32,000 nt of DNA from Promethearchaeota archaeon. GTDB lineage: Archaea > Asgardarchaeota > Lokiarchaeia > Sigyniarchaeales > SOKP01. A program made the translations under genes and the position numbers. Numbering within the stretch: position 1 is the stretch's first letter; every line of letters starts with the position of its first letter. The stretch is from contig JAUWGH010000001.1 in NCBI GenBank assembly GCA_030606485.1, positions 660,001-692,000 on the forward strand, given 5' to 3'. Positions 11,605 to 24,260 of the stretch are shown here, one piece after another. The notes beneath the pieces were generated by a model. It was not told the DNA's origin and did not search any database. It saw nothing but the letters and a program-made list of their open reading frames with translations.

Positions 11605-12673
11605 ATGAAAAAAAAAAGGGAAGTCAATTTTTTTTCATAGTATTCTACTTCTATTTTTTTTGATTTCTTTAAATCTATTCTGTAATAAAAATATTTTTAA
11701 TAGGAATAAGATTGAAACAGAAGATGAAATTTTATTCCCTCAATTATCTACAGCAAATTCATTTATAATTGAATGGTTTAGAATATGGAATGGAAGTGGA
11801 TTTGATTCATATAATGCAATAACATTGGATTCTTCAAGTAGTATTTATGTTGCAGGACATAGAAGAAGGAATGGAATAGAAAATTTTGATATATGTCTAT
11901 TAAAATATAATAGTTCAGGTATTCTACAATGGGATACTACATGGAGTGGAAGTTCTGATGATTATGGAAGTGGAGTAGCAATATATTCTTTAGGTAATAT
12001 TTATATTGCGGAATACACAGGGAGTTACGGGGTGGGAGCTTATGATTTGTGCCTTGCGAAATATGATAGTTCAGTCGTTCAGCAATGGAATCGTACATGG
12101 GGCGGAAGTGATTATGATGCAGGACGTGGAGTGGCAGTAGATTCTTCAGATAATATTTATGTTGCGGGATACACAAATAGTTTCGGGACGGAAGGAGAGG
12201 ATAGGTATTTTGTGAAGTTTGGTATTGATTCGGATGGAGATGGATTATCTAATTGGCAGGAAGTAAATATTTATCCCACCAATCCAAATGATCCAGATAC
12301 AGATGGTGATGGATTTAGTGATGGAGAAGATGCATTTAACGGTTATGATCCGAATAATAAATGGAGTAAATCCTTTCATGGCTATGATAATTATAATTAT
12401 CACAGTAATCATATTTCTGGCAATTTTAGGGATTATAATTTTTATATCTTATCAAGATTTAAAGAGAAATAGGGAAAAGGAACAATTAGAGAGGGAACTA
12501 GAGGAAAGAGAAGAAGAGAGAGAAAGAAAGCGTTTAGAAATTTTGGAAAATGTCAAGAATATTTTTCGAGTAGTAAATCTGTTGCTTTCGATCAACAGAC
12601 AAACATCGATGAGATTGATAAATTAATGGATGCCTATAAAGAGTTGGAAGGTAAAAAGTTCAAAAAAGAATAG
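11605..12673 (+). pseudogene. Decayed paralog of the SBBP propeller-TM-PCI gene (3 blades, 2 DxDGDG repeats, TM, PCI C-terminal remnant)
   Basis: ATG at 11605 needs a +1 correction (A10/T8 runs) to reach the SBBP frame; extra A at 12368-12370 shifts the TM into ORF 12288..12626; 12553-12555 replaces about 325 nt present in copy B (14391-14715); 12557-12673 encodes EYFSSSKSVAFDQQTNIDEIDKLMDAYKELEGKKFKKE*, matching the end of 14381..14833. Confidence 0.85.
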
Positions 12674-12884: not shown

Positions 12885-14375
12885 ATGAAATATAGAAAAA
12901 TTTACACTATAATATTCATTTTAATCTTGTATTTTACCTTCATATTACAACTAAATGACACGATTTTTTATAAACACGATAATAAGAGCAATAGAACTAT
13001 ATTACCCATTTTATCTACCGGTGATGCAACTGTTTATAAGTGGAATCGTACATGGGGCGGAAGTGATTCTGAATGTGGAAAAGGAGTGGCAGTAGATTCT
13101 TCAGGTAATATTTATGTTGCGGGAACCACGGGGACTCTCGAGACGGGAGGTAGTGATATGTGTCTTGTGAAATATGACAGTTCAGGCGTTCAGCAATGGA
13201 CTTGTACATGGGGGGGAAGTTCTAGTGATTATGGAAGTGGAGTGGCAGTAGATTCTTCAGGTAATATTTATGTTGCGGGAACCACGGGGGTTTTATTGGT
13301 TAATTTTTACCGATATTTGCATCCGATTTGTGGTGATATGTGCCTTGTGAAATATGACAGTTCAGGCGCTCAGCAATGGAATCGTACATGGGGCGGAAGT
13401 TCTGGTGATTATGGAAGTGGAGTGGCAGTAGATTCTTCAGGTAATATTTATATTGCAGGATACACTGAGAGTTTCGGGGCGGGAAGTTGGGACATGTGCC
13501 TTGTGAAATATGACAGTTCAGGCGTTCAGCAATGGAATCGTACATGGGGCGGCAGGTTTTATGATGCAGGACATGGATTAACATTAGATTCTTCAGGTAA
13601 TATTTATATCGTGGGATACACAAGGAGTTTCGGGGCGGGAAATTATGATATGTGTCTTGTGAAATATGACAGTTCAGGCGTTCAGCAATGGAATCGTACA
13701 TGGGGGGGAAGTGATGAAGATTATGGAAATGGAGTGGCAGTAGATTCTTCAGGTAATATTTATATTGCGGGATACACAGGGAGTTTCGGGGCGGGAGGTG
13801 GTGATATGTATCTTGTGAAATATGACAGTTCAGGCGTTCAGCAATGGAATCGTACATGGGGCGGAAGGTTTTATGATACAGGACATGGATTAACATTAGA
13901 TTCTTTAGGTAATATTTATATCGTGGGATACACATCGAGTTTCGGGGCGGGATATTCTGATATGTGCCTTGTGAAATATGACAGTTCAGGCGCTCAGCAA
14001 TGGAATCGCACATGGGGCGGAATTTTTATGGATGAAGGATTTGGATTAACATTAGATTCTTTAGGTAATATTTATATCGTGGGACGCACATGGAGTTTCG
14101 GGGCGGGAGCTCATGATATGTGCCTTGTGAAGTTTTTTATTGATTCGGATGGAGATGGATTTAGTGATGAAGAAGAGGCATTAAGCGGTTATGATCCGAA
14201 TAATAAATGGAGTAATCCTTTTATGTCTATGGTAATAATTACAATAATCATAATTCTGGCAATTTTGGGAGTTTTAATCTTTATAGTTTATCCTTATATA
14301 AAGAGAAATAGGGAAAAGGAACGATTAGAGAGGGAACTAGAGGAAAGAGAAAGAAGAGAGAAAGAAAGCGTTTAG
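12885..14375 (+). CDS. Membrane-anchored SBBP-repeat 7-bladed beta-propeller protein (N-terminal part of a probably frameshifted gene)
   Basis: Hydrophobic N-terminus, seven WNRTWGG...DSSGNIY..G...D.CLVKYD repeats, DSDGDGFSD Ca-binding-type motif, C-terminal TM and charged coiled coil. Confidence 0.9.
   Translation: MKYRKIYTIIFILILYFTFILQLNDTIFYKHDNKSNRTILPILSTGDATVYKWNRTWGGSDSECGKGVAVDSSGNIYVAGTTGTLETGGSDMCLVKYDSSGVQQWTCTWGGSSSDYGSGVAVDSSGNIYVAGTTGVLLVNFYRYLHPICGDMCLVKYDSSGAQQWNRTWGGSSGDYGSGVAVDSSGNIYIAGYTESFGAGSWDMCLVKYDSSGVQQWNRTWGGRFYDAGHGLTLDSSGNIYIVGYTRSFGAGNYDMCLVKYDSSGVQQWNRTWGGSDEDYGNGVAVDSSGNIYIAGYTGSFGAGGGDMYLVKYDSSGVQQWNRTWGGRFYDTGHGLTLDSLGNIYIVGYTSSFGAGYSDMCLVKYDSSGAQQWNRTWGGIFMDEGFGLTLDSLGNIYIVGRTWSFGAGAHDMCLVKFFIDSDGDGFSDEEEALSGYDPNNKWSNPFMSMVIITIIIILAILGVLIFIVYPYIKRNREKERLERELEERERREKESV
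13041..14135 (+). repeat. Seven tandem 156-bp (52-aa) SBBP blade repeats
   Basis: Units start at 13041, 13197 (180 bp), 13377, 13533, 13689, 13845 and 14001; near-invariant block ttgtgaaatatgacagttcaggcg(t/c)tcagcaatgga at the junctions. Confidence 0.97.
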
Positions 14376-14833: not shown

Positions 14834-14866
14834 GATATAATTAGAAATATATCTTTTAGCCTATTT

Positions 14867-15652
14867 TTACTTATATTTTTTGATGAATTCTTTCAAAGGT
14901 AAAAAATATTCTTCTTTATAGGAAAAAATGTCATTATGTCCAGCCCCTTCAATCATAATTAATTTTTTTTCAAATTCATCAGGAAGGGCATTATATATTA
15001 CTTTTGCCTCATCACAAGGAATAATCCAATCCATTGTTCCATGAATAATCAATACTGGCGTTTTAAATTTTTCAATACGAGTATCATTTGAGTATTGCTT
15101 TAATATTTCAGGGGTGATATTAGGACCACTTACTCTAAATAGTCTCGTCATCATGTTGTAAATACTCCCAAATCCACTTTCAAAAATAATGCCTCGTAAA
15201 TCTTTTGGATTATGAGCTCCAATTTCTGCGGCACAAACGCTTCCTAATGATCGCCCTAAGATAAAAAGCGAATCTTTTAAATTATTATCATCCATCCATT
15301 TTTTCATTTCATTGTAAATTGGAATAGCGTCCGATATTAAACTACTATATATTGGATCACCTGTACTAAAACCATAACCCCGAAAATCAACGACTGCTAA
15401 ATTTACCCCACATTGAAAAAATAGTGGTGCAAAATATTGATAATCAAGTGCAATTTCACCATTACCATGGAATAATAAAATCGTTGGGAGATCAGGATTA
15501 TTTAGAAAAAAAAATCCACCAATTAGGAGATTTTTACCAATTTGAAATTTTAACAGTTTAATGCTTGGATCTAAATTATTCGGAATCGCTATTTTGCGGG
15601 GATAAAACACGACATTAGAAATTCTAGGATCATCCAAAAACAATATTTTCAC
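14867..15652 (-). CDS. Alpha/beta hydrolase (BEM46/ABHD13-like)
   Basis: LFHGNGE, DFRGYG, nucleophile GRSLG, IHGTMD and GAGHND catalytic-triad motifs. Confidence 0.9.
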   Translation of the reverse strand: MKILFLDDPRISNVVFYPRKIAIPNNLDPSIKLLKFQIGKNLLIGGFFFLNNPDLPTILLFHGNGEIALDYQYFAPLFFQCGVNLAVVDFRGYGFSTGDPIYSSLISDAIPIYNEMKKWMDDNNLKDSLFILGRSLGSVCAAEIGAHNPKDLRGIIFESGFGSIYNMMTRLFRVSGPNITPEILKQYSNDTRIEKFKTPVLIIHGTMDWIIPCDEAKVIYNALPDEFEKKLIMIEGAGHNDIFSYKEEYFLPLKEFIKKYK

Positions 15653-15771
15653 TTTTTTTTAAGAATTATGCTAATTTTTAAAAAACACAATTGTGAGATT
15701 ATAGGAAATAAAAAGATATTTAATATTAAATTTTATTACTTTTCATAAAATTGAATACTTTTTTTTAAAAT

Positions 15772-16131
15772 ATGAAAAAACTCAAAACAAAATTAGTTCG
15801 GTGTAAACTTTGTTCAAATCCATTTTTTAGAGATCAAAACTCTACAAGCGAAATTTGCGAAAATTGTATTAAACTTGAAGAAAGACGTAAGAGAACGGCT
15901 GCACTAAAAGTAAAACAGGAAGAAATGCAGAAAGACATAAATAAAATGGAAAATCAACTTAAGATTACTATGTCGCAGCGGAAGAAAGAGGAAATTAAAA
16001 AGGAGATCGAAGAAAGAACTTTTTCTTTATCAAAATCAATAGAACTCTTAGTAAAATATGAAGAAACAGGTGATGAGATTTATATTGAGCAGTATATGAA
16101 CCTGTTTAAGTTATTGAAAAAAAATAAGTAA
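15772..16131 (+). CDS. Hypothetical protein, N-terminal Zn-ribbon plus coiled coil
   Basis: CKLC...CENC followed by a charged heptad-rich helix; occupies the gap between flanking genes. Confidence 0.7.
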   Translation: MKKLKTKLVRCKLCSNPFFRDQNSTSEICENCIKLEERRKRTAALKVKQEEMQKDINKMENQLKITMSQRKKEEIKKEIEERTFSLSKSIELLVKYEETGDEIYIEQYMNLFKLLKKNK

Positions 16132-16221
16132 TATTATAACCATGAATTCCGTATCTATTTTTGAATTATAATTATAATAAAAATGTGAAAAATATTAAAA
16201 TTAAAATCCATTAATTAGAAG

Positions 16222-16323
16222 TTAGTTTCTCAATTTTATTCTCTTAGATTTATTAAGAATCGCAATTACTCCTATTCCTGCAAGCAGTGAAATAATGATC
16301 CATCCATCAGGATATCCAGGAAT
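16222..16323 (-). other. Loki-CTERM-type C-terminal sorting signal
   Basis: IPGY at 16323-16312, then the hydrophobic segment WIIISLLAGIGVIAIL and the basic tail KSKRIKLRN, the tripartite form of archaeosortase-type signals. Confidence 0.75.
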
Positions 16324-19086
16324 CATGGGAGATGGTTCTTCTTCTTCCTCTTCTTCAGCTGTGATTAAATACAGAATACCATCACAAACTGGCGAAGTTT
16401 CTCCTACTGCATTTCGAAACTTAGCACAGATTGAATATTCCGTATTATTTAGGGATCCTTCTAGATATAACTGTTTTGCTGTAGCATAAGGTTCCCAATC
16501 AGTCCAAGCACCAGTAGTTCCATTTCTAAAGCACATTTCTACTGCTCCATCAGCCGAGAGCGTGAGATTCAATAAGGTAGAATTAGTACTGGCATCTCCA
16601 TTATTTATAATTATGGATGGATTCAATGGTATCGTCAAATATAATATGCTATCACAAACCGGTGTAGTTTCTCCTATTGCATTTCGAAATTTCACATAAA
16701 TTGAATATTGTGTGTTATTTATAGAACCTTCTAAATACAACTGTTTTGCTGTAGCATAAGGTTCCCAATCAGTCCAAGCACCAGTAGTTCCATTTCTAAA
16801 GCACATTTCTGTTGCTCCATACACTGAGAGCGTGAGATTCACCAAGGTAGAATTAGTACTGGCATCTCCATTATTTATAATTATGGATGGATTCAATGGA
16901 GGTATGAATACCAAATATAAAATGCTATCACCGACTGAGGAACTTTCTCCTATTTCATTTCGAAATTTCACATAAATTGAATATTGTGTGTTATTTATTA
17001 AATATTCTAAATATAACTGTTTTGTTGTACTATACGCCTCCCAACTGGTCCAATCACCGGTCGTTCCTTTTCTAAAGCACATTTCTACTGCTCCATCAGC
17101 CGAGAGCGTGAGATTCACAAAGTTAGAACCAAAACTGGCATCTCCATTATTTATAATTATGGATGGATTCAATGGAGGTGTGAATACCAAATATAAAATG
17201 CTATCACCGATTGGGGAAGTCTCTCCCATTGCATTTCGAAATTTCACATAAATTGAATATTCCGTATTGTTTATAGAGCCTTCTAAAACCAACTGTTTTG
17301 CTGTAGCATAAGGTTCCCAACTGGTCCAAGCACCGGTCGTTCCATTTCTAAAGCACATTTCTTCGGCTAAATCCGCCGAGAGCGTGAGAGTCACTAAGGC
17401 ATAATTAGTACAGGCATCTCCATTATTTATAATTATGGATAAATTCAATGGGATGGATATCAAATATAAAATGCTATCACCGATTGGGGAAGTCTCTCCT
17501 ATTGCATTTCGAAATTTCACATAAATTGAATATTCCGTATTGTTTATAGAGCCTTCTAAATACAACTGTTTTGCTGTAGCATAAGGTTCCCAACTGGTCC
17601 AAGCACCGGTCGTTCCATTTCTAAAGCACATTTCTTCGGCTAAATCCGCCGAGAGCGTGAGAGTCACTAAGGCAGAACCAGTACAGGCATCTCCATTATT
17701 TATAATTATGGAGGGAGGTGATATTAATTTTTTATAAAATATATCCTTATCCGTTCCTGAACCGCCATAATCCGTAGAATCATACCACGCAATGTGCACG
17801 TTTCCGGAACCGTCCGCTGCTATTGTTGGATATCTAGAATAACCAGTGCTTTCCGTGGAGACCACCTCGGTCGTGGTCCAGTTCGCCGTGGTCGCGTCCC
17901 AGTACTTATAAAATATATCCCTATCCATTCCCGAACCGCCATAATCCGTAGGATCATTCCACGCAATGTGCACGTTTCTGGAACCGTCCACTGCTATTGT
18001 TGGTTCCTCAGAATAACCAGTGCTTTCCGCGGAGACCACCTCGGTTGTGTTCCAGGCCGCCGTGGTCGCGTTCCAGTACTTATAAAATATATCCCAATCC
18101 GTTCCCGAACCGTTATAATTCGTATAATCATACCATGCAATGTGCACGTTTCCGGAATCGTCCACTGCTATTGTTGGACACCAAGAATCATCAGTGCTTT
18201 CCGTGGAGACCACCTCGGTTGTGGTCCAGGCCGCCGTGATCGCGTACCAGCGCTTATAAAATATATCAGCATCCGTTCCCGAACCGCTATAATCCGTCCA
18301 ATCCATCCATGTCAGGTGCAGGTTTCCGGAATCGTCCACTGCTATTGTTGGATAATAAGAATTATCAGCGCTTTCCGTGGAGACCACCTCGGTTGTGGTC
18401 CAGGCCGCCGTGTTTGCGTTCCAGCGCTTATAAAATATATCATCATCCGTTCCCGAACTGCCATAATCCGTCCGACCCTCCCACGCAATGTGCACGTTTC
18501 CGGAACCGTCCACTGCTATTGTTGGGTCATAAGAAAAATCAGTGCTTTCCGTGGAGACCACCTCGGTCGTGGTCCAGGCCGCCGTGGTCGTGTTCCAGCG
18601 CTTATAAAATATATCAAGATCCGTTCCCGAACCGTCATAATTCGTATAATCATACCATGCAATGTGAACGTTTCCGGAACCGTCCACTGCTATTGTTGGA
18701 TTATAAGATTTATCAGTGCTTTCCGTGGAGACCACCTCGGTTGTGGTCCAGGCCGCCGTGGTTGCGTTCCAGCGCTTATAAAATATATCAGCATCCGTTC
18801 CCGAACCGCCATAATTCGTAGAATCATACCACGCAATGTACACGTTTCCGGAATCGTCTACTGCTATTGTTTGACAAATAGAATCATGAATGCTTTCCGT
18901 GGAGACAACCTCGGTCGTGGTCCAATTCCAAGCAGAAATTTTTAATTCTTCTGAAAAGCTCTCTAAATCTTCGACAACATGATCCTTTAACAAATTGATG
19001 TTATTATAGAGATAAATAGCTGTGAAGCCACTAAAAAAAATGGTCAAAGAGATCAATAAAGCTAATTTAAATTTACTTCGTTTCAT
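16222..19086 (-). CDS. Large cell-surface glycoprotein: signal/TM, 7-blade beta-propeller, five Ig-like repeats, acidic linker, Loki-CTERM sorting signal
   Basis: 7x58-aa repeats, 5x ~90-aa repeats, many N-x-S/T sequons, E7 linker then IPGY-hydrophobic-basic tail; SD-like GGGAGT upstream. Confidence 0.92.
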   Translation of the reverse strand: MKRSKFKLALLISLTIFFSGFTAIYLYNNINLLKDHVVEDLESFSEELKISAWNWTTTEVVSTESIHDSICQTIAVDDSGNVYIAWYDSTNYGGSGTDADIFYKRWNATTAAWTTTEVVSTESTDKSYNPTIAVDGSGNVHIAWYDYTNYDGSGTDLDIFYKRWNTTTAAWTTTEVVSTESTDFSYDPTIAVDGSGNVHIAWEGRTDYGSSGTDDDIFYKRWNANTAAWTTTEVVSTESADNSYYPTIAVDDSGNLHLTWMDWTDYSGSGTDADIFYKRWYAITAAWTTTEVVSTESTDDSWCPTIAVDDSGNVHIAWYDYTNYNGSGTDWDIFYKYWNATTAAWNTTEVVSAESTGYSEEPTIAVDGSRNVHIAWNDPTDYGGSGMDRDIFYKYWDATTANWTTTEVVSTESTGYSRYPTIAADGSGNVHIAWYDSTDYGGSGTDKDIFYKKLISPPSIIINNGDACTGSALVTLTLSADLAEEMCFRNGTTGAWTSWEPYATAKQLYLEGSINNTEYSIYVKFRNAIGETSPIGDSILYLISIPLNLSIIINNGDACTNYALVTLTLSADLAEEMCFRNGTTGAWTSWEPYATAKQLVLEGSINNTEYSIYVKFRNAMGETSPIGDSILYLVFTPPLNPSIIINNGDASFGSNFVNLTLSADGAVEMCFRKGTTGDWTSWEAYSTTKQLYLEYLINNTQYSIYVKFRNEIGESSSVGDSILYLVFIPPLNPSIIINNGDASTNSTLVNLTLSVYGATEMCFRNGTTGAWTDWEPYATAKQLYLEGSINNTQYSIYVKFRNAIGETTPVCDSILYLTIPLNPSIIINNGDASTNSTLLNLTLSADGAVEMCFRNGTTGAWTDWEPYATAKQLYLEGSLNNTEYSICAKFRNAVGETSPVCDGILYLITAEEEEEEEPSPMIPGYPDGWIIISLLAGIGVIAILNKSKRIKLRN
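16360..17712 (-). repeat. Five tandem ~270-bp Ig-like repeats
   Basis: SIIINNGDA...LTLS...EMCFRNGTTGAWT.WEPYATAKQLYLEG..NNT.YSIYVKFRN..GE repeated five times, with near-identical DNA. Confidence 0.95.
17731..18924 (-). repeat. Seven tandem 174-bp (58-aa) beta-propeller blade repeats
   Basis: WTTTEVVSTES..S..PTIAVD.SGNVHIAW.D.T.Y.GSGTD.DIFYK.W repeated seven times with no indels. Confidence 0.97.
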
Positions 19087-19264
19087 GGATTATTACTCCC
19101 ATAAAAAATTTTCATTGTGTCTTTAAATATATCCTTTTTTTTCATTTATATATTTTTGTCAAATTAACATTGTGTTTATTTTTAATTTACTTCTCTATTA
19201 TCCACAAATTTTTGTTTTTTGCTCATTTTTTATTTATTTGATAAAAATGAGATGTTTTTTCCTC

Positions 19265-19288
19265 TAATTTGATAAATTTCTCAAATTA
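19265..19288. promoter_or_regulatory. 24-bp near-perfect palindrome, possible operator
   Basis: TAATTTGATAAATTTCTCAAATTA, 11 of 12 pairs complementary, about 180 bp upstream of the surface-protein start; the AT-rich context lowers significance. Confidence 0.3.
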
Positions 19289-19693
19289 TATTATCTGATT
19301 ATGAAATTATTAGTAAAATACAGATCAATTTAAGTTTCATATTATACAAAGATAAAATTTAATTTATCTAGAAATTTGTGGAATATGCGTGGATATCATC
19401 AAGTTTAGACGATTATCAAAGTATAAGTGATATAATATATTTTTCTCAGAAATATAAATAAGGGCTGAGGGTTTGAGTTAAATTCAAAGGAACTTATCTC
19501 GTTTCAAATTTTCTTTATCTTTTAAAAGTATGCTAGAAATTTTTTTAGTTCTATTTTGAAATTTCAGCGTGCGTTAATAAAATTTATTAGGAAATTTAAA
19601 TTTCCAATACAAGGGATTAAAACTTTTTGCTGTTCTGCGAAATTATTTAATGCGTTATAAATAATTATTATACTTCTTAATTTTGGGATAATC

Positions 19694-20923
19694 TTATCGT
19701 TTTTTACTTTTCTGCAATATTTCCATAAAGCTTTCTAATTTATTTTTGAGTTGTTCTTCATTCATTTTTCTTGGATCGTTCATATCCGATTCAATAACAA
19801 GGGATGGAATACCTTCTTCTTCCATAAGCCGTTGTTTAAGATCATACAGTCCACATGAATTGGGTCGACAGGAAAGATTGTTGTGCAATATTAATCCATC
19901 AATCTTCCACTCCTTTATCACTCTTTTGAACTCCCTCACTCTTGTTTCAAGATCGTATATATACCAGAAAGACAACATAATTTTTGCCATAGCTTTGATT
20001 GGATTATTGATTATATACTCCTTGCTCATTGATGGATCTAAGAATTTCCCAAAAGAATAAGTATAAGGTTCAAATACAATAATTGCTCCCCATTGTTCCA
20101 AGATACCAAAAAATTTTAAATTATACCAGAATGGGATTCCTGAAAAAAGTAGCCGGAATTGTTCGTTCTCTAAGGCCCCGATACCATTATCTACTCTTTC
20201 TTGAGTCTCTTGATACATTTTTTTAAATACTCTAATTGGCTCTTTTAATCCGGGCATAGTAAAAAGTGGAAATATACCACCGAAAGTATCTTTGGTTGAT
20301 ACTGGGCAAGGTATTGTTTTTCTTAATTCAAAAATTTTAATCCAGTATTCACTTAACTCGTAGGAATTAGTAATAACCTCTCTTGATTTTTCTTCATTAT
20401 ATTCTTTTTTAGTTATTTCTGAGATCCAATCCATTAATTCAAGCATCTGTTCTTCTACATATGACTGATAATACTCCTTTTGTTTATTCGTAGTATTGCT
20501 AGTGACATGAGGGACATCAATTATATATAGTGGAACTTTATATCTTTGAGATTGGACTTGAAACCACTTTACATGAGTATCACATATTACATCTGCTGCA
20601 ACCATAAATGTTGGTGGTTTTATTCCACCTAAATCTATAGGTGCATTATTTAACATGGCTCCAACATTAGTTTTAAAATAGGAACATAAATCATAAGAAA
20701 AACCCAAATCTTCAGCAGATTCAATATATTTTTTTGAAACTTTCTGGGCGGCGGAAATAGTAGCTGCATTTTCAGGTAAAATTGGTTGAACGTCAAAAGT
20801 ATAAAGCATCTCGACAGAAGTCCCACTAGTAGCCCATGCCGTAGGGGTTCCATCTCGATAGGCTTGTTCTATAGCTAAATAATGGCGTCCCATTAAATTT
20901 TTAACTTTTAAAGATGAATTCAA
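19694..20923 (-). CDS. 2-hydroxyacyl-CoA dehydratase / class I benzoyl-CoA reductase-like Fe-S subunit (HgdA/BcrB/BzdO-like)
   Basis: PENAA, DLCSY, ICDTHVKWF, LSCRP and IESDMND motifs with three conserved Cys. Confidence 0.88.
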   Translation of the reverse strand: MNSSLKVKNLMGRHYLAIEQAYRDGTPTAWATSGTSVEMLYTFDVQPILPENAATISAAQKVSKKYIESAEDLGFSYDLCSYFKTNVGAMLNNAPIDLGGIKPPTFMVAADVICDTHVKWFQVQSQRYKVPLYIIDVPHVTSNTTNKQKEYYQSYVEEQMLELMDWISEITKKEYNEEKSREVITNSYELSEYWIKIFELRKTIPCPVSTKDTFGGIFPLFTMPGLKEPIRVFKKMYQETQERVDNGIGALENEQFRLLFSGIPFWYNLKFFGILEQWGAIIVFEPYTYSFGKFLDPSMSKEYIINNPIKAMAKIMLSFWYIYDLETRVREFKRVIKEWKIDGLILHNNLSCRPNSCGLYDLKQRLMEEEGIPSLVIESDMNDPRKMNEEQLKNKLESFMEILQKSKKR

Positions 20924-20949
20924 TATTTTACTTTTGGGTTTTTGTGCTG

Positions 20950-22011
20950 TTATTTTTTAACACCTCCTAATATTTCTTTAAAAGCTTCGAATTTCGTCGT
21001 GAGTTGGTTATACGAGTCTCTCTTGTATTCTTTTTCTAAAAAAATAAAAGGCATTCCCATTTCTTTAAATGAATCTCTAAAAAAGGGATATTCATAAAGT
21101 AAAGGCTCACAAAACTTTTGAACCAAACATATTACTCCCTGAACTTGATACTTTTTAGCAAGACCTTTAATAAAATCGAACCTCCCCGATGAAGGATGTT
21201 CGGTGGAATAGGGTGGTTTTGATAAATGAAAGTTCGCAATATCTTTTATGGGGTCTCCAGTTATTTCTATTTTATTATGAAAATATCTTGTACCAATGCA
21301 TAAATCGTCAGTAATAATTTCAAAACCTAAGCTTTCTAGATATTTAAGTATTTCTGTATCATCTAAAATAGAGCCGGTTAATAAAATCCTTTTTTTACTA
21401 CCATCAACGTAGGGTAAAGGTTCTTTGATTTCCAACTTTTTTAATTTTTCTTTTAAGTTGTGTAAAACATCCTTTTTATCCGATTTATATGCATTTTTAA
21501 TAATTGCATGAAATTCTGATCCTAACAATAAACCTTTATTTCTATATTCAGAAATCTTTTTTAATAACTTACGAATTTCATTCGTTAAATTTATTGCTTC
21601 ATAAAGTTTTTTATCAGTTATTTCAACTCCAAAATGTTCTTCTAGTTGAAATTTTAATTCTTTTAAGTCATTAATGAAAAATTTTAAAGATAATTTATCT
21701 CGCTTCAATGGTGCATTTAAATAATAATAAAAATCATAGGAAACATGCTCAAACCATATATCATATTCGCGATTTGAACAATCACATGCGTGAGTTATAA
21801 TAATTCCTTTTATTTCTTTATCCAATCCATTTAACCCTCTCTGAAGGCAATTTCTTGCCCAGAAACAATGATTTGGGGGCACGAATTTATTAGCATCCAT
21901 TAGATCAATTGTCGGATCCCCAAAAATTCTATATGGGATTAAATTCGCTGCCATAATTAATTCTTCTGGAGTATTAAAACTTGGATCAATATAACCTATT
22001 TTGTAAGCCAT
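20950..22011 (-). CDS. 2-hydroxyacyl-CoA dehydratase / BCR-like Fe-S subunit (HgdB/BcrC/BzdN-like)
   Basis: TPEELIMAA, HCFWARNC, HACDC, DDLCIG.RYF, QKFCEP and LTTKFEAF motifs. Confidence 0.88.
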   Translation of the reverse strand: MAYKIGYIDPSFNTPEELIMAANLIPYRIFGDPTIDLMDANKFVPPNHCFWARNCLQRGLNGLDKEIKGIIITHACDCSNREYDIWFEHVSYDFYYYLNAPLKRDKLSLKFFINDLKELKFQLEEHFGVEITDKKLYEAINLTNEIRKLLKKISEYRNKGLLLGSEFHAIIKNAYKSDKKDVLHNLKEKLKKLEIKEPLPYVDGSKKRILLTGSILDDTEILKYLESLGFEIITDDLCIGTRYFHNKIEITGDPIKDIANFHLSKPPYSTEHPSSGRFDFIKGLAKKYQVQGVICLVQKFCEPLLYEYPFFRDSFKEMGMPFIFLEKEYKRDSYNQLTTKFEAFKEILGGVKK

Positions 22012-22038
22012 TTTGTTTTAAATCCATAAATTATTATT

Positions 22039-22065
22039 TAATTTAACCAAGGTTTAGTTAAATTA
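22039..22065. promoter_or_regulatory. Inverted repeat, putative operator for the dehydratase/BCR-like operon
   Basis: TAATTTAAC-N9-GTTAAATTA, perfect 9-bp arms, 28 bp upstream of the 22011 start in a divergent intergenic region. Confidence 0.45.
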
Positions 22066-22197
22066 TGTGATTAAATATTATAAGCTTTTTATTAATCACG
22101 AGAATATTCGCTTGAAATCAACACTTAAAATAAAAAAATATTTAAGTTTTAAAACAAAATACAACTTATAATCTAATCAAATTCAGTCGAAGATATT

Positions 22198-22524
22198 TTG
22201 GACCACGTACAGAATATTCATAATTATTTAGAAAAAGCGACGCATCAGCCAAGTGTAAGGATAAAAATTAAAATCTGGAACACTTACATAGTTGGAAAGA
22301 TAATTGAATTTGATAATCATTTGAATCTTTTATTATCTGATGCAAGAGAAATTTATTTGGGACCAGGGGGACATCGAGAAAAAGAACTTGGAAATATTAT
22401 GATACGTGGTGCAAGCATTATACTAATTGGACAAAAATATGAAACCATAAATCTAAGTGAAGAAAAGATTTCCCAATTGATGGTAGATGAAGATATAAGT
22501 GACAATGGAGGAGCGGAAGATTAA
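22198..22524 (+). CDS. Sm-like (Lsm/SmAP) RNA-binding protein with acidic C-terminal tail
   Basis: Sm1 GKIIEFDNHLNLLLSDA and Sm2 GNIMIRG motifs; directly upstream of rpl37e, the conserved archaeal arrangement. Confidence 0.9.
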   Translation: MDHVQNIHNYLEKATHQPSVRIKIKIWNTYIVGKIIEFDNHLNLLLSDAREIYLGPGGHREKELGNIMIRGASIILIGQKYETINLSEEKISQLMVDEDISDNGGAED

Positions 22525-22530
22525 ATTAAA

Positions 22531-22538
22531 AGGAGTGA
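22531..22538 (+). promoter_or_regulatory. Shine-Dalgarno-like site of rpl37e
   Basis: AGGAGTGA ending 7 nt before the ATG at 22546. Confidence 0.55.
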
Positions 22539-22545
22539 ATAAATA

Positions 22546-22746
22546 ATGACAAAAGGAACACCAAGTTTTGGAAAACATAACAAAAGAGCCAGCCACAGAA
22601 TATGCCGTAGATGTGGAAATAGATCTTATCATAGACAGAAAAAAGTTTGTGCAAGTTGTGGCTTCGGAGCGAGCGCTAAATTAAGAAAATTTAATTGGAG
22701 CCGTCACGTAAGAGCTTTTAACGACCAAAAGGCATATCATAAGTGA
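22546..22746 (+). CDS. rpl37e: 50S ribosomal protein L37e
   Basis: [10 protein letters not shown]...CRRCG..SYH..K..CASCGFG.S.K.R..NW signature. Confidence 0.98.
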
Positions 22747-22811
22747 TTTATTAACTAATTTTTTATTATATTAGACTTTTTATGTTTTATTAAATTCATA
22801 GTGAATATATT

Positions 22812-23345
22812 ATGATAATTGAGAGTCCTCATAGTGGAAAAAAGCCAATTATTCATGAATCGGTATTCATCGCCCCAACTGCAGTAATTATAGGTGATGT
22901 TGAGATTGGAGAGGGATCAAATATATGGTTTGGCGTAGTGTTGCGTGGAGATTGGGGTAGAATTCGAATAGGAAAATTTACTTCAATTCAAGAGAATGTA
23001 ACTGTTCATACCGAAGTCGATAAAGAAGCAATAATTGGAGATAATTGTATTGTTGGACATCATGCGATGATTCATGGACCGTGTGTTATTGAAAATGGAT
23101 GTTTAATAGGAATAGGTTCTAATGTCCTTAATAATTCAAAATTAGGCGAGGGTTGTTTATTAGCTGGTGGGGCGGTTTTAACAAATAAGGAAATACCTCC
23201 AAGAAAATTAGTTGTTGGTATACCTGCTGAGATTAAAAAAGATTTAAAAAGTACTGGAAAGGCATTGGGAGTAATTAATTCAATGGGTTATTATAGAAAC
23301 GGTCAGGAATTCAAAAAATTATTTGAAAAGTTAAGTAAGAAATAA
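22812..23345 (+). CDS. Gamma-carbonic anhydrase family hexapeptide-repeat protein
   Basis: FIAPTAVIIGDVEIG, IWFGVVLRGD, IQEN..VH, VGHHAMIHG. Confidence 0.93.
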   Translation: MIIESPHSGKKPIIHESVFIAPTAVIIGDVEIGEGSNIWFGVVLRGDWGRIRIGKFTSIQENVTVHTEVDKEAIIGDNCIVGHHAMIHGPCVIENGCLIGIGSNVLNNSKLGEGCLLAGGAVLTNKEIPPRKLVVGIPAEIKKDLKSTGKALGVINSMGYYRNGQEFKKLFEKLSKK

Positions 23346-23378
23346 TTATAATATTGAATTAACATAAGTTGAAATTTT

Positions 23379-24260
23379 ATGTTATTAAAAGGAAAAAATA
23401 TCGTTATAACAGGTTCAGGGCGGGGTATTGGAAAGGAAGTTGCATTGGCTTGTGCAAGGGAAGGAGCCAATATGGGATTGACATCAAGAACTAGAGAAGA
23501 ATTAGACAATACGAAAAAAGAAATAGAAGATTTAGGAACTGGAGTAAAGGTTGTTATAGTGACTGGGGATATTTCAAAATATGAAGATACTGAGAATATT
23601 TTTAAAAACTTACATAATGAACTTGGTCCATTAGATGGCGTTATTGCAAATGCAGGATATTCGCGTAGAGGTTCTTCAGATACATTTGAAATTATGAAAT
23701 TTCGGCAAATTCTTGATGTAAATATTCTTGGCGTCTATTTTACATTTAGAGCTGCCTTACCACATTTAAGAAAGGATGATAAAAAAAACAAAGCTAGGTT
23801 TATTGTGACTGGGAGTGGTGCTTATCAAACAATAATGCCCTTGTTTGCATCTTATACCGCTAGTAAATGGGGTGTAGTCGGTTTAGTTAAAGCGTTAGCA
23901 GCGGAATATAAAAAAGAGAACATCACCTTTAATATAATATTACCAACAATGGTAGATACACGATTGTTACGTGGAAGAAAAGCGGGGGATGGAAAAAAAG
24001 ATGATTTTATAATGAATCCTTGGGATTTAAATGAATATTATCTGTTTTTGTTATCAGATGAAGCGAATAGAATAAATGATGAAATGATTTATACTCAAGA
24101 TTTTCAACAAGTAAAAAAAATTATAAATGAAGCCCCAACCGATAAAAAGGAAAATTGGGAAATATTTCAAGAATATTTAGAGGAAAAGAATCCTAAACTA
24201 TTTAATTCTGTAAAAAAATTAAGAAAATTTATTGAATTTCTTTTATTGCGAAGAAAATAA
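23379..24260 (+). CDS. Short-chain dehydrogenase/reductase (SDR)
   Basis: TGSGRGIG, NAG and YTASK catalytic motifs. Confidence 0.93.
   Translation: MLLKGKNIVITGSGRGIGKEVALACAREGANMGLTSRTREELDNTKKEIEDLGTGVKVVIVTGDISKYEDTENIFKNLHNELGPLDGVIANAGYSRRGSSDTFEIMKFRQILDVNILGVYFTFRAALPHLRKDDKKNKARFIVTGSGAYQTIMPLFASYTASKWGVVGLVKALAAEYKKENITFNIILPTMVDTRLLRGRKAGDGKKDDFIMNPWDLNEYYLFLLSDEANRINDEMIYTQDFQQVKKIINEAPTDKKENWEIFQEYLEEKNPKLFNSVKKLRKFIEFLLLRRK

Follow-up and report, generated by a model that had tools for sequence, protein, structure and literature searches.

How can the repeats of one gene be almost identical in their DNA and yet, at a few fixed codons, differ in nearly every copy? This question is raised by a gene on the minus strand of a 32,000-nucleotide stretch from the genome of a Promethearchaeota archaeon (assembly GCA_030606485.1, contig JAUWGH010000001.1, positions 660,001 to 692,000; the whole stretch is hereafter called the window), which appears to encode a cell-surface protein with the seven blades of a beta-propeller. 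The source genome (3.75 Mb in 13 contigs, 29% G+C) is 100% complete by marker genes. An initial annotation, made from the DNA letters alone, had described a frozen scaffold with hypervariable loop codons, and had attributed it to concerted evolution combined with diversifying selection or targeted mutagenesis. In this study, we analyzed the codons, history, predicted structure and relatives of this gene, and found that repeat homogenization or recent amplification, together with diversifying selection on a predicted extracellular binding face, is probably the explanation.

According to this model, a C-terminal helix would anchor the protein, and five FN3/Ig-like domains would hold its seven-bladed SBBP/BNR-like propeller off the membrane. 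The blades would have been recently amplified or homogenized through recombination, both among the repeats of this gene and with those of a paralog, leaving the scaffold DNA near-identical, and selection would favor, or preserve, differences at six to seven codons per blade. The protein would then presumably be a receptor or an adhesin whose extracellular binding module evolves fast.

Hypervariable codons in a nearly uniform scaffold

A codon table of the seven blades (blade register beginning at residue 51; blade i runs from 18936-174(i-1) down to 18763-174(i-1)) revealed that positions 18, 20, 21, 37, 39 and 49 each carried 4-6 different codons, many of them 2-3 bases apart, and that most other blade codons were identical, third positions included. 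All six variable positions of the initial annotation, together with their residue lists, were reproduced by this table (its positions 14, 16, 17, 33, 35 and 45 are 18, 20, 21, 37, 39 and 49 here). Its description of the scaffold as frozen was appropriate for most codons, but the scaffold as a whole was only nearly invariant, as secondary variable positions were found inside it (17, 28, 41, 43, 55 and 57), position 17 representing a seventh, weaker variable site. The most variable position was 49, with 6 codons in 7 blades and an entropy of 3.6 bits over 31 blades and 4.1 bits over the 601 blades of the family sample described below; the entropy of patch 1 (positions 17, 18, 20 and 21) was 2.2-3.1 bits over 31 blades. 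The variable residues were rich in Tyr (19%), Asp (15%), Gly (10%) and Trp (6%), the paratope-like bias that had been suggested before.

The concentration of differences at these sites was considerable. The six variable codons (12% of the 50 compared) accounted for 218 of the 422 pairwise base differences, i.e. 52%, and for 30 of the 58 minimum base changes (P ~5e-6 under an even spread, with the best six picked post hoc). Tandem Repeats Finder placed the array at 17732-18924, in frame within the minus-strand open reading frame (period 174, 6.9 copies, 87% matches), and mean pairwise blade identity was 84% for nucleotides, 73% for amino acids at all positions and 86% for amino acids of the scaffold. 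Using Nei-Gojobori counts, we found a scaffold proportion of synonymous differences (pS) of 0.09-0.10 and of non-synonymous differences (pN) of 0.06-0.08 within the gene, versus a pN of 0.57-0.62 at the variable codons. The stalk repeats of the same protein served as an internal control: they were similarly alike (86% matches by Tandem Repeats Finder; pS 0.28, pN 0.13), yet no column had more than 3 residues and none was hypervariable. Thus, the pattern belongs to the propeller and not to tandem repeats in this gene generally. Since recombination would homogenize neutral sites too, a rate 4-6-fold above the synonymous one can only be explained by selection or targeted mutation. These results are consistent with concerted evolution of the scaffold (homogenization or recent amplification) accompanied by diversity-favoring selection on a small number of codons in loops and at strand ends, the first of the two origins offered by the initial annotation.

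To place these differences in time, we used a paralog (hereafter B, the window gene being A) located 145 kb away on the same contig (C10:821423-823156, plus strand, locus L002). B encodes 577 residues; it has seven blades, two of which contain small indels, and a single stalk repeat, and its C-terminal anchor differs from that of A. The two loci formed a single blastn alignment from about -580 nt to gene nt 1625 with 85.5% identity. The first 100 nt upstream were 96-100% identical and the first 165 coding nt, which include the N-terminal hydrophobic segment, 98% identical (pS 0.035), and the variable residues of A and B blades showed no correspondence.

The gene is not present at this site in every genome of the genus. 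The flanks of the gene (window 14865-16176 and 19655-24000) mapped with 92-93% identity to adjoining DNA in another genome of the same genus (G001; L027, G001:C14), where they abut directly; thus, window 16177-19654 is missing there. At the syntenic spot of a further genome (G002; L028, G002:C115) there are two unrelated genes, so that this intergenic spot is a hotspot of gene turnover. Three propellers of the window-gene type are present elsewhere in G001, without shared flanks.

Single-copy flanking genes differed between the source genome and G001 by a pS of 0.17-0.37. Scaffold pS was 0.09 within A, 0.09-0.15 within A or B and 0.12 between A and B, versus 0.27-0.31 between the two genomes and 0.38-0.40 within G001 genes, and blades clustered by genome, not by propeller position. 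Therefore, the blades of A and B were amplified or homogenized after the species split, and their scaffold is younger than that split. Variable-codon pN was 0.53-0.61 in every comparison (0.53 for A versus B), and, judged from these counts, the variable codons of A and B appear to have been replaced to saturation over the same period. A test for independent amplification by gene-specific diagnostic nucleotides, as used in PMC9218822, was uninformative, with one such position among four genes.

A pair of alleles from independent samples showed how such replacement might proceed. The alleles P0022 and P0125 of a B-like relative (L029:3001-4770 and L030:821-2590) have 26 differences in 1,770 nt. 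Of these, 25 lie within nt 898-1205 (308 nt, blades 5-6), most of them at or beside variable codons, with just 1 difference in 800 nt upstream. Parts of this patch are 92-100% identical to other blades of that gene, and P0022 contains two adjacent blades with almost the same variable set. Furthermore, residue combinations across positions 37-49 recurred among blades beyond independence (P 0.002-0.04). Allelic replacement in this relative is thus patchwise, and the patch and the recurring combinations would fit recombinational exchange of blade segments plus point substitutions.

Predicted structure, display and family

An AlphaFold2 model based on an alignment of eleven relatives showed a seven-bladed propeller (predicted local distance difference test score, pLDDT, 90.7; predicted template modeling score 0.91), with strands at blade positions 4-10 (broken), 19-26, 32-38 and 50-57. 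In this model, patch 1 runs from the last part of the loop preceding the second strand onto the first residues of that strand, patch 2 straddles the boundary between the third strand and the long loop that follows it, and the variable sites, position 49 included, occupy both ends of this 39-49 loop before the fourth strand. Given the antiparallel four-stranded topology of the blade, all of these sites would lie at one sheet end. The expectation that they occupy one face thus agreed with the topology of a confident model, although not as measured from coordinates, and about 45 residues are predicted to form one asymmetric face round the central channel. If 19-26 is the inner strand, the variable loops would be D-A and B-C, that is, the "top" face by WD40 convention. 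The top face is the usual ligand-binding face of propellers, and WD40 propellers bind partners there. Conserved residues take turns with variable ones (S-x-x-P, W-x-D-x-T, D-x-D), a pattern that one would expect with every second side chain facing outward. If the model is right, the family would be a natural example of a stable propeller scaffold tolerating ~45 free surface positions.

The lists of structural matches were filled with propellers. The best solved match of the model was the CylK propeller (7ron_A; Z 42.4, root-mean-square deviation 2.4, 373 residues aligned, 14% identity), the next matches having a Z of ~30. Neighbors in the ESM Atlas were BNR_2/BNR_4 sialidase-like propellers (template modeling score, TM, 0.79-0.87 by query and 0.72-0.90 by match), and the top of the Foldseek list was occupied by seven-bladed Photorhabdus PLL/PHL lectins (E ~1e-12, TM 0.6-0.78, 12-15% identity). 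Unlike the window gene, CylK and the BNR_2/BNR_4 propellers have blades that are differentiated from one another; they act as enzymes or generic binding modules and are not known for hypervariable positions. At the sequence level, Pfam SBBP (PF06739) scored 43 bits (cut-off 20.5, E 4.5e-11), its best stretch covering profile positions 14-29 of 38 only. Relatives also match BNR_4 (PF15892), which places the family between SBBP and BNR-like repeats. The NCBIfam model NF053835 (PDIAV motif-containing lipoprotein) reached 66.3 bits, below its curated cut-off of 90, and indicates a related repeat motif only.

With regard to display, the N-terminal signal or anchor and the C-terminal membrane helix would place the repeats outside the cell, and the product is predicted from its sequence to be a surface protein of this Asgard archaeon. 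The stalk repeat was modeled as all-beta (pLDDT 82), with FN3, PKD and Ig as the nearest folds at weak scores (TM 0.5-0.62). Five such beta-sandwich repeats and a membrane anchor agree with the display on an Ig stalk that had been proposed earlier. The protein ends in a basic tail of nine residues (KSKRIKLRN), and the homologs in G001 carry the same C-terminal tail. As to a sorting signal of the PGF-CTERM/archaeosortase type, the PGYPDGW motif and the hydrophobic helix precede this tail, and no NCBIfam C-terminal sorting-domain model matched the protein. Archaeosortase (PF09721) was not found in the source genome by a search whose control was positive in only 1 of 14 reference genomes.

A HMMER search of 1.84 billion representatives (50%-identity clusters) yielded 16,857 matches at E <= 1e-3 and 1,047 at E <= 1e-30, and among the top matches listed every organism name was that of an Asgard archaeon (Heimdall, Hod, Hel and Sigyn groups). 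From the 120 best word-indexed matches we obtained a sample of 92 Asgard proteins with 601 in-register blades, which is biased towards query-like proteins. The six most variable positions over these blades were exactly 49, 39, 21, 20, 18 and 37 (3.6-4.1 bits), and median within-protein identity was 0.79 for the scaffold and 0.12 for the variable sites; the same positions are therefore variable family-wide. Relatives examined had seven blades or two sets of seven, without repeat-number polymorphism, and the number of stalk repeats varied (1, 5 or 2+3). Some relatives carry two propellers, and others add PKD, beta-helix or Ig domains. In two Helarchaeota proteins (P0027 and P0014), a signal sequence, two family propellers, Ig-like repeats and one hydrophobic helix are followed by a cytoplasmic TIR_2 domain (37 and 30 bits, respectively; cut-off 28). 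Full-text literature searches found no paper describing this Asgard propeller family and none relevant to Asgard transmembrane TIR proteins. Two homologs in another genome (L019 and L020 of G019) have a cytoplasmic domain of ~250 residues without a Pfam match after the membrane helix, and in one of them two blades are identical in protein sequence.

Weighing of the explanations

Several observations weigh against homogenization with diversifying selection. First, Logan contigs from four DNA runs, the likely source sample among them, break into pieces of 100-400 nt across the repeats, many of which fit two places; none spans the array, so that blade order is neither confirmed nor contradicted by them. 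Second, pN and pS were obtained by counts from non-independent blade pairs, without a recombination-aware codon model. Third, no syntenic orthologous pair was found, and turnover between species rests on paralog-like comparisons: none of the genes flanking the window gene also flanks the G001 homologs (C41 and C47), and B and its closest relative (L029) have only the gene itself in common. Fourth, the allelic patch of P0022 and P0125 comes from metagenome assemblies and may be chimeric. Fifth, the propeller of another cluster of relatives (P0045) is identical in three assemblies, which indicates that change is not fast within populations and gives no sign of rapid somatic-type change. Finally, the GC-rich synonymous sites of the scaffold are not accounted for by this model alone.

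The last point deserves some detail. The scaffold had a GC content at third codon positions (GC3) of 0.50-0.55, compared with 0.20 for the variable codons and 0.28-0.30 for the remainder of the gene. Scaffold GC3 was 0.50 in B and weaker in G001 (0.41-0.44), and the anomaly is confined to the genus. An AT-rich relative (G019) has blades up to 97% identical with a GC3 of 0.16, and GC-rich relatives in the same order reach 0.84; thus, repeat identity as such does not raise GC content. GC-biased gene conversion was considered as the source of the GC-rich scaffold and was not favored, given the GC3 of this G019 relative and that of an SBBP gene next to the window gene (0.32). It is possible that the blade was acquired from a GC-richer Asgard lineage and subsequently decayed, and rapid replacement of the variable codons within this genome would be expected to leave them with the host-like composition that they show.

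Among the other explanations, two appeared to survive best, although both seem improbable. The first holds that the blades are old, that each keeps its own contact residues under purifying selection, and that only the scaffold has been homogenized by short conversion tracts, which would make the protein a fixed receptor. The identical propeller of the P0045 cluster and the recurrence of some patches between blades and genes would agree with this, as would the host-like variable codons in a GC-rich scaffold, which look as if they had separate histories. However, no blade-for-blade match of variable residues was observed between A and B, between A and the G001 genes, or between B and its closest relative, despite a scaffold and N-terminal pS of 0.035-0.3. 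Moreover, conversion tracts would have to skip islands of 3-15 nt that are only 27-78 nt apart, and the adjacent blades of P0022 with their near-identical variable sets show that conversion does carry those codons.

The second, for which we see about the same small chance, is a multivalent lectin of the Photorhabdus PLL/PHL or tachylectin type that binds the same sugar once per blade. It draws on the PLL/PHL lectins at the top of the Foldseek list and on the sialidase-like neighbors in the ESM Atlas, but these are generic propeller matches with 12-15% identity, and the clearly best match is an enzyme propeller (Z 42 versus ~30). In addition, identical sugar sites need conserved contacts, and exactly those positions differ in every blade.

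Less probable still is that the blades were recently amplified and that unconstrained surface codons have drifted neutrally, with no binding implied. Recently amplified propellers are common and many decay (PMC9218822), and the same positions are the least conserved in distant relatives too. Nevertheless, neutral sites cannot outpace synonymous ones, which is incompatible with a pN of 0.57 against a scaffold pS of 0.09; the stalk repeats lack such sites, the residues are biased to Tyr, Asp, Gly and Trp, and the frame and the count of seven blades are kept across hundreds of relatives.

Collapse or mis-assembly of the array is unlikely, and we give very little credit to the view that blades of several strains or paralogs were stitched or collapsed into one gene. 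The source is a metagenome-assembled genome, the Logan contigs shatter over the repeats as described above, and assembly from Illumina reads is known to break down where fungal WD40 repeats are highly conserved internally (PMC12222747). On the other hand, exact repeats within the propeller DNA reach at most 49 nt, so that ordinary reads can order the blades, and each blade junction is flanked at no more than 90 nt by variable codons that are unique. The gene sits on a contig of 913 kb, its frame is unbroken, and it has exactly seven blades, in agreement with the relatives examined. A 215-nt contig of run X1 matches 17963-18177 exactly, which is more than one blade, and the same signature is present in paralog B and in independent genomes.

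The second origin offered by the initial annotation, targeted mutagenesis, was not supported. The sole reverse transcriptase of the source genome is encoded on another contig (C2:277890-278597, minus strand, L003) and is of the group II intron type (RVT_N, RVT_1 and GIIM). No non-coding template repeat was found in this genome, the only blade-like DNA besides A being the coding paralog B. The variable columns have no adenine bias (majority base G in 16, T in 13, A in 10 and C in 7) and vary at all three codon positions, and codons for Trp, Glu, Lys, Met, Gln and Arg, which AAY mutagenesis cannot yield, are common at positions 20, 37, 39 and 49. At positions 17, 18 and 21, all 23 of the 23 four-fold-degenerate codons in four genes of the genus (A, B, L016 and L017) end in T, versus only ~30-38% T at host four-fold sites; this lock becomes a T/C mix in L029 and is missing in distant relatives. 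We read it, as a guess, as a third base inherited from Asp, Asn, Tyr and His codons during rapid turnover of the first and second bases. Thus, although changes limited to fixed codons and often of 2-3 bases, and a T lock superficially like AAT-templated NNT codons, might suggest a diversity-generating retroelement (DGR) or other dedicated mutator, such an origin is the least credible of all, given the intron-type reverse transcriptase in a genome complete by markers, the need for a template covering 1.2 kb and 21 separate patches, the base composition and codons of the variable sites, the unchanged P0045-cluster propeller and the absence of the T lock from distant relatives.

As a separate observation, the frame that encodes the L003 reverse transcriptase exceeds 850 aa, and treble-clef zinc-finger, SAP and CapR-homology domains form part of the same fusion protein.

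Known systems and features of the locus

Near-identical repeats with a few hypervariable contact codons are a hallmark of fast-evolving recognition proteins, such as fungal nucleotide-binding oligomerization domain-like receptors (NLRs) and prokaryotic WD40 proteins. Of the phenomena described so far, the high internal conservation seen in repeats of fungal NLRs comes closest, and the window gene has its evolutionary mode in common with it. In fungi, such repeats (WD40 in het-d, het-e and nwd genes of Podospora; also ANK and TPR) are ~85% identical, evolve in concert within and between paralogs, and experience positive selection at three to five binding-face codons in each repeat (PMC4986451, PMC12222747). 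Similarly, the blades of the window gene, like the fungal repeats, fall in a range of ~80-90% identity within one gene (at or above ~80-85%) and have fixed codons with a non-synonymous excess, and the window gene and its relatives showed signs of exchange within and between paralogs; hypervariable codons on the ligand-binding face of the propeller are also predicted here, with the face assigned from strand topology only. In contrast to the 42-residue WD40 repeats of fungi, the blades are 58-residue SBBP/BNR-like units. The protein is predicted to be extracellular and membrane-anchored, without a death-effector domain and without a NACHT/NB-ARC NTPase domain (the latter not found by Pfam and NCBIfam searches of P0001). 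Blade number is fixed at seven (or 14) and is not length-polymorphic, and repeat-induced point mutation, a fungal process, plays no part in this archaeal protein.

Highly repetitive or recently amplified propellers have been described in prokaryotes, including WRAP of Nostoc punctiforme (PMC9218822), as have highly repetitive WD40 proteins with diverse hotspot residues (PMC5587647). The terms "SBBP" and "Asgard" were not found in PMC9218822. The window gene resembles these proteins in its near-identical blade DNA, in apparently independent amplification or homogenization in close homologs and in diverse predicted interaction hotspots. It differs in that its scaffold has synonymous differences (pS 0.09) when the variable codons are already saturated, which points to selection rather than only recent birth. 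Like DGR targets, it would vary at a set of solvent-facing codons on a stable surface or receptor scaffold, the exposure being predicted from the model; unlike them, it has no DGR-type reverse transcriptase, template repeat or adenine pattern, and its variation is spread over 21 patches in 1.2 kb. The TIR-bearing relatives P0027 and P0014 have the layout of Toll-like receptors (repeat ectodomain, one helix, cytoplasmic TIR), but with a propeller in place of leucine-rich repeats. The window gene itself has only its short basic tail, and no homology to animal Toll-like receptors is implied beyond the TIR domain.

What is new is not the mechanism but the appearance of this signature in a very large family of apparently extracellular, membrane-anchored Asgard propellers. 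Asgard archaea rely on cell-cell partnerships and are the closest known archaeal relatives of eukaryotes. A diversifying repertoire of surface receptors, some of them with TIR domains, would bear on partner and virus recognition and on the roots of eukaryotic recognition systems. We consider it conceivable, although rather doubtful, that the family forms a large Asgard repertoire of extracellular variable receptors, in which seven-bladed propellers with a rapidly changing top face sense partners, competitors or viruses and some members signal via cytoplasmic domains, TIR among them, in the manner of Toll-like receptors. If so, the innate recognition receptors of eukaryotes would have a counterpart on the surface of prokaryotic cells.

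The features of the gene and its surroundings are listed in Table 1.

Table 1. Features of the propeller gene and of its locus (window coordinates)
Feature	Position	Strand	Basis or remark
Whole gene, 954 aa (P0001), predicted membrane-anchored surface protein	16222..19086	-	Open reading frame and translation, Pfam SBBP
N-terminal hydrophobic segment, aa 8-27, signal peptide or signal anchor	19006..19065	-	Translation
Seven blades of 58 aa (174 nt), aa 51-456	17719..18936	-	Tandem Repeats Finder, codon table, AlphaFold2
Variable patch 1, blade 1: positions 17, 18, 20, 21	18874..18888	-	Codon table; -174 per further blade
Variable patch 2, blade 1: positions 37 and 39, either side of conserved Asp 38	18820..18828	-	-174 per further blade
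Variable codon 49, blade 1, between conserved Asp 48 and Asp 50	18790..18792	-	-174 per further blade
Five repeats of ~92 aa, aa 457-915, predicted FN3/Ig-like beta-sandwich stalk	16342..17718	-	Tandem repeat, period 276
Glu-rich linker, PGYPDGW motif, hydrophobic helix, basic tail (C-terminal anchor or sorting signal)	16225..16341	-	Translation
Upstream region common to paralog B, presumed promoter and leader	19087..19666	-	blastn
Segment missing at the syntenic G001 site (gene and upstream region)	16177..19654	.	Flank mapping

A neighboring SBBP propeller gene on the plus strand (window 12885-14375; also 11660-12472) showed the same signature, with near-identical blades of 52 residues and at least 4 different residues among five blades at positions 24, 26, 28, 45, 51 and 52. 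The third-position GC content of this gene was host-like, and these SBBP genes are also missing from the G001 locus.

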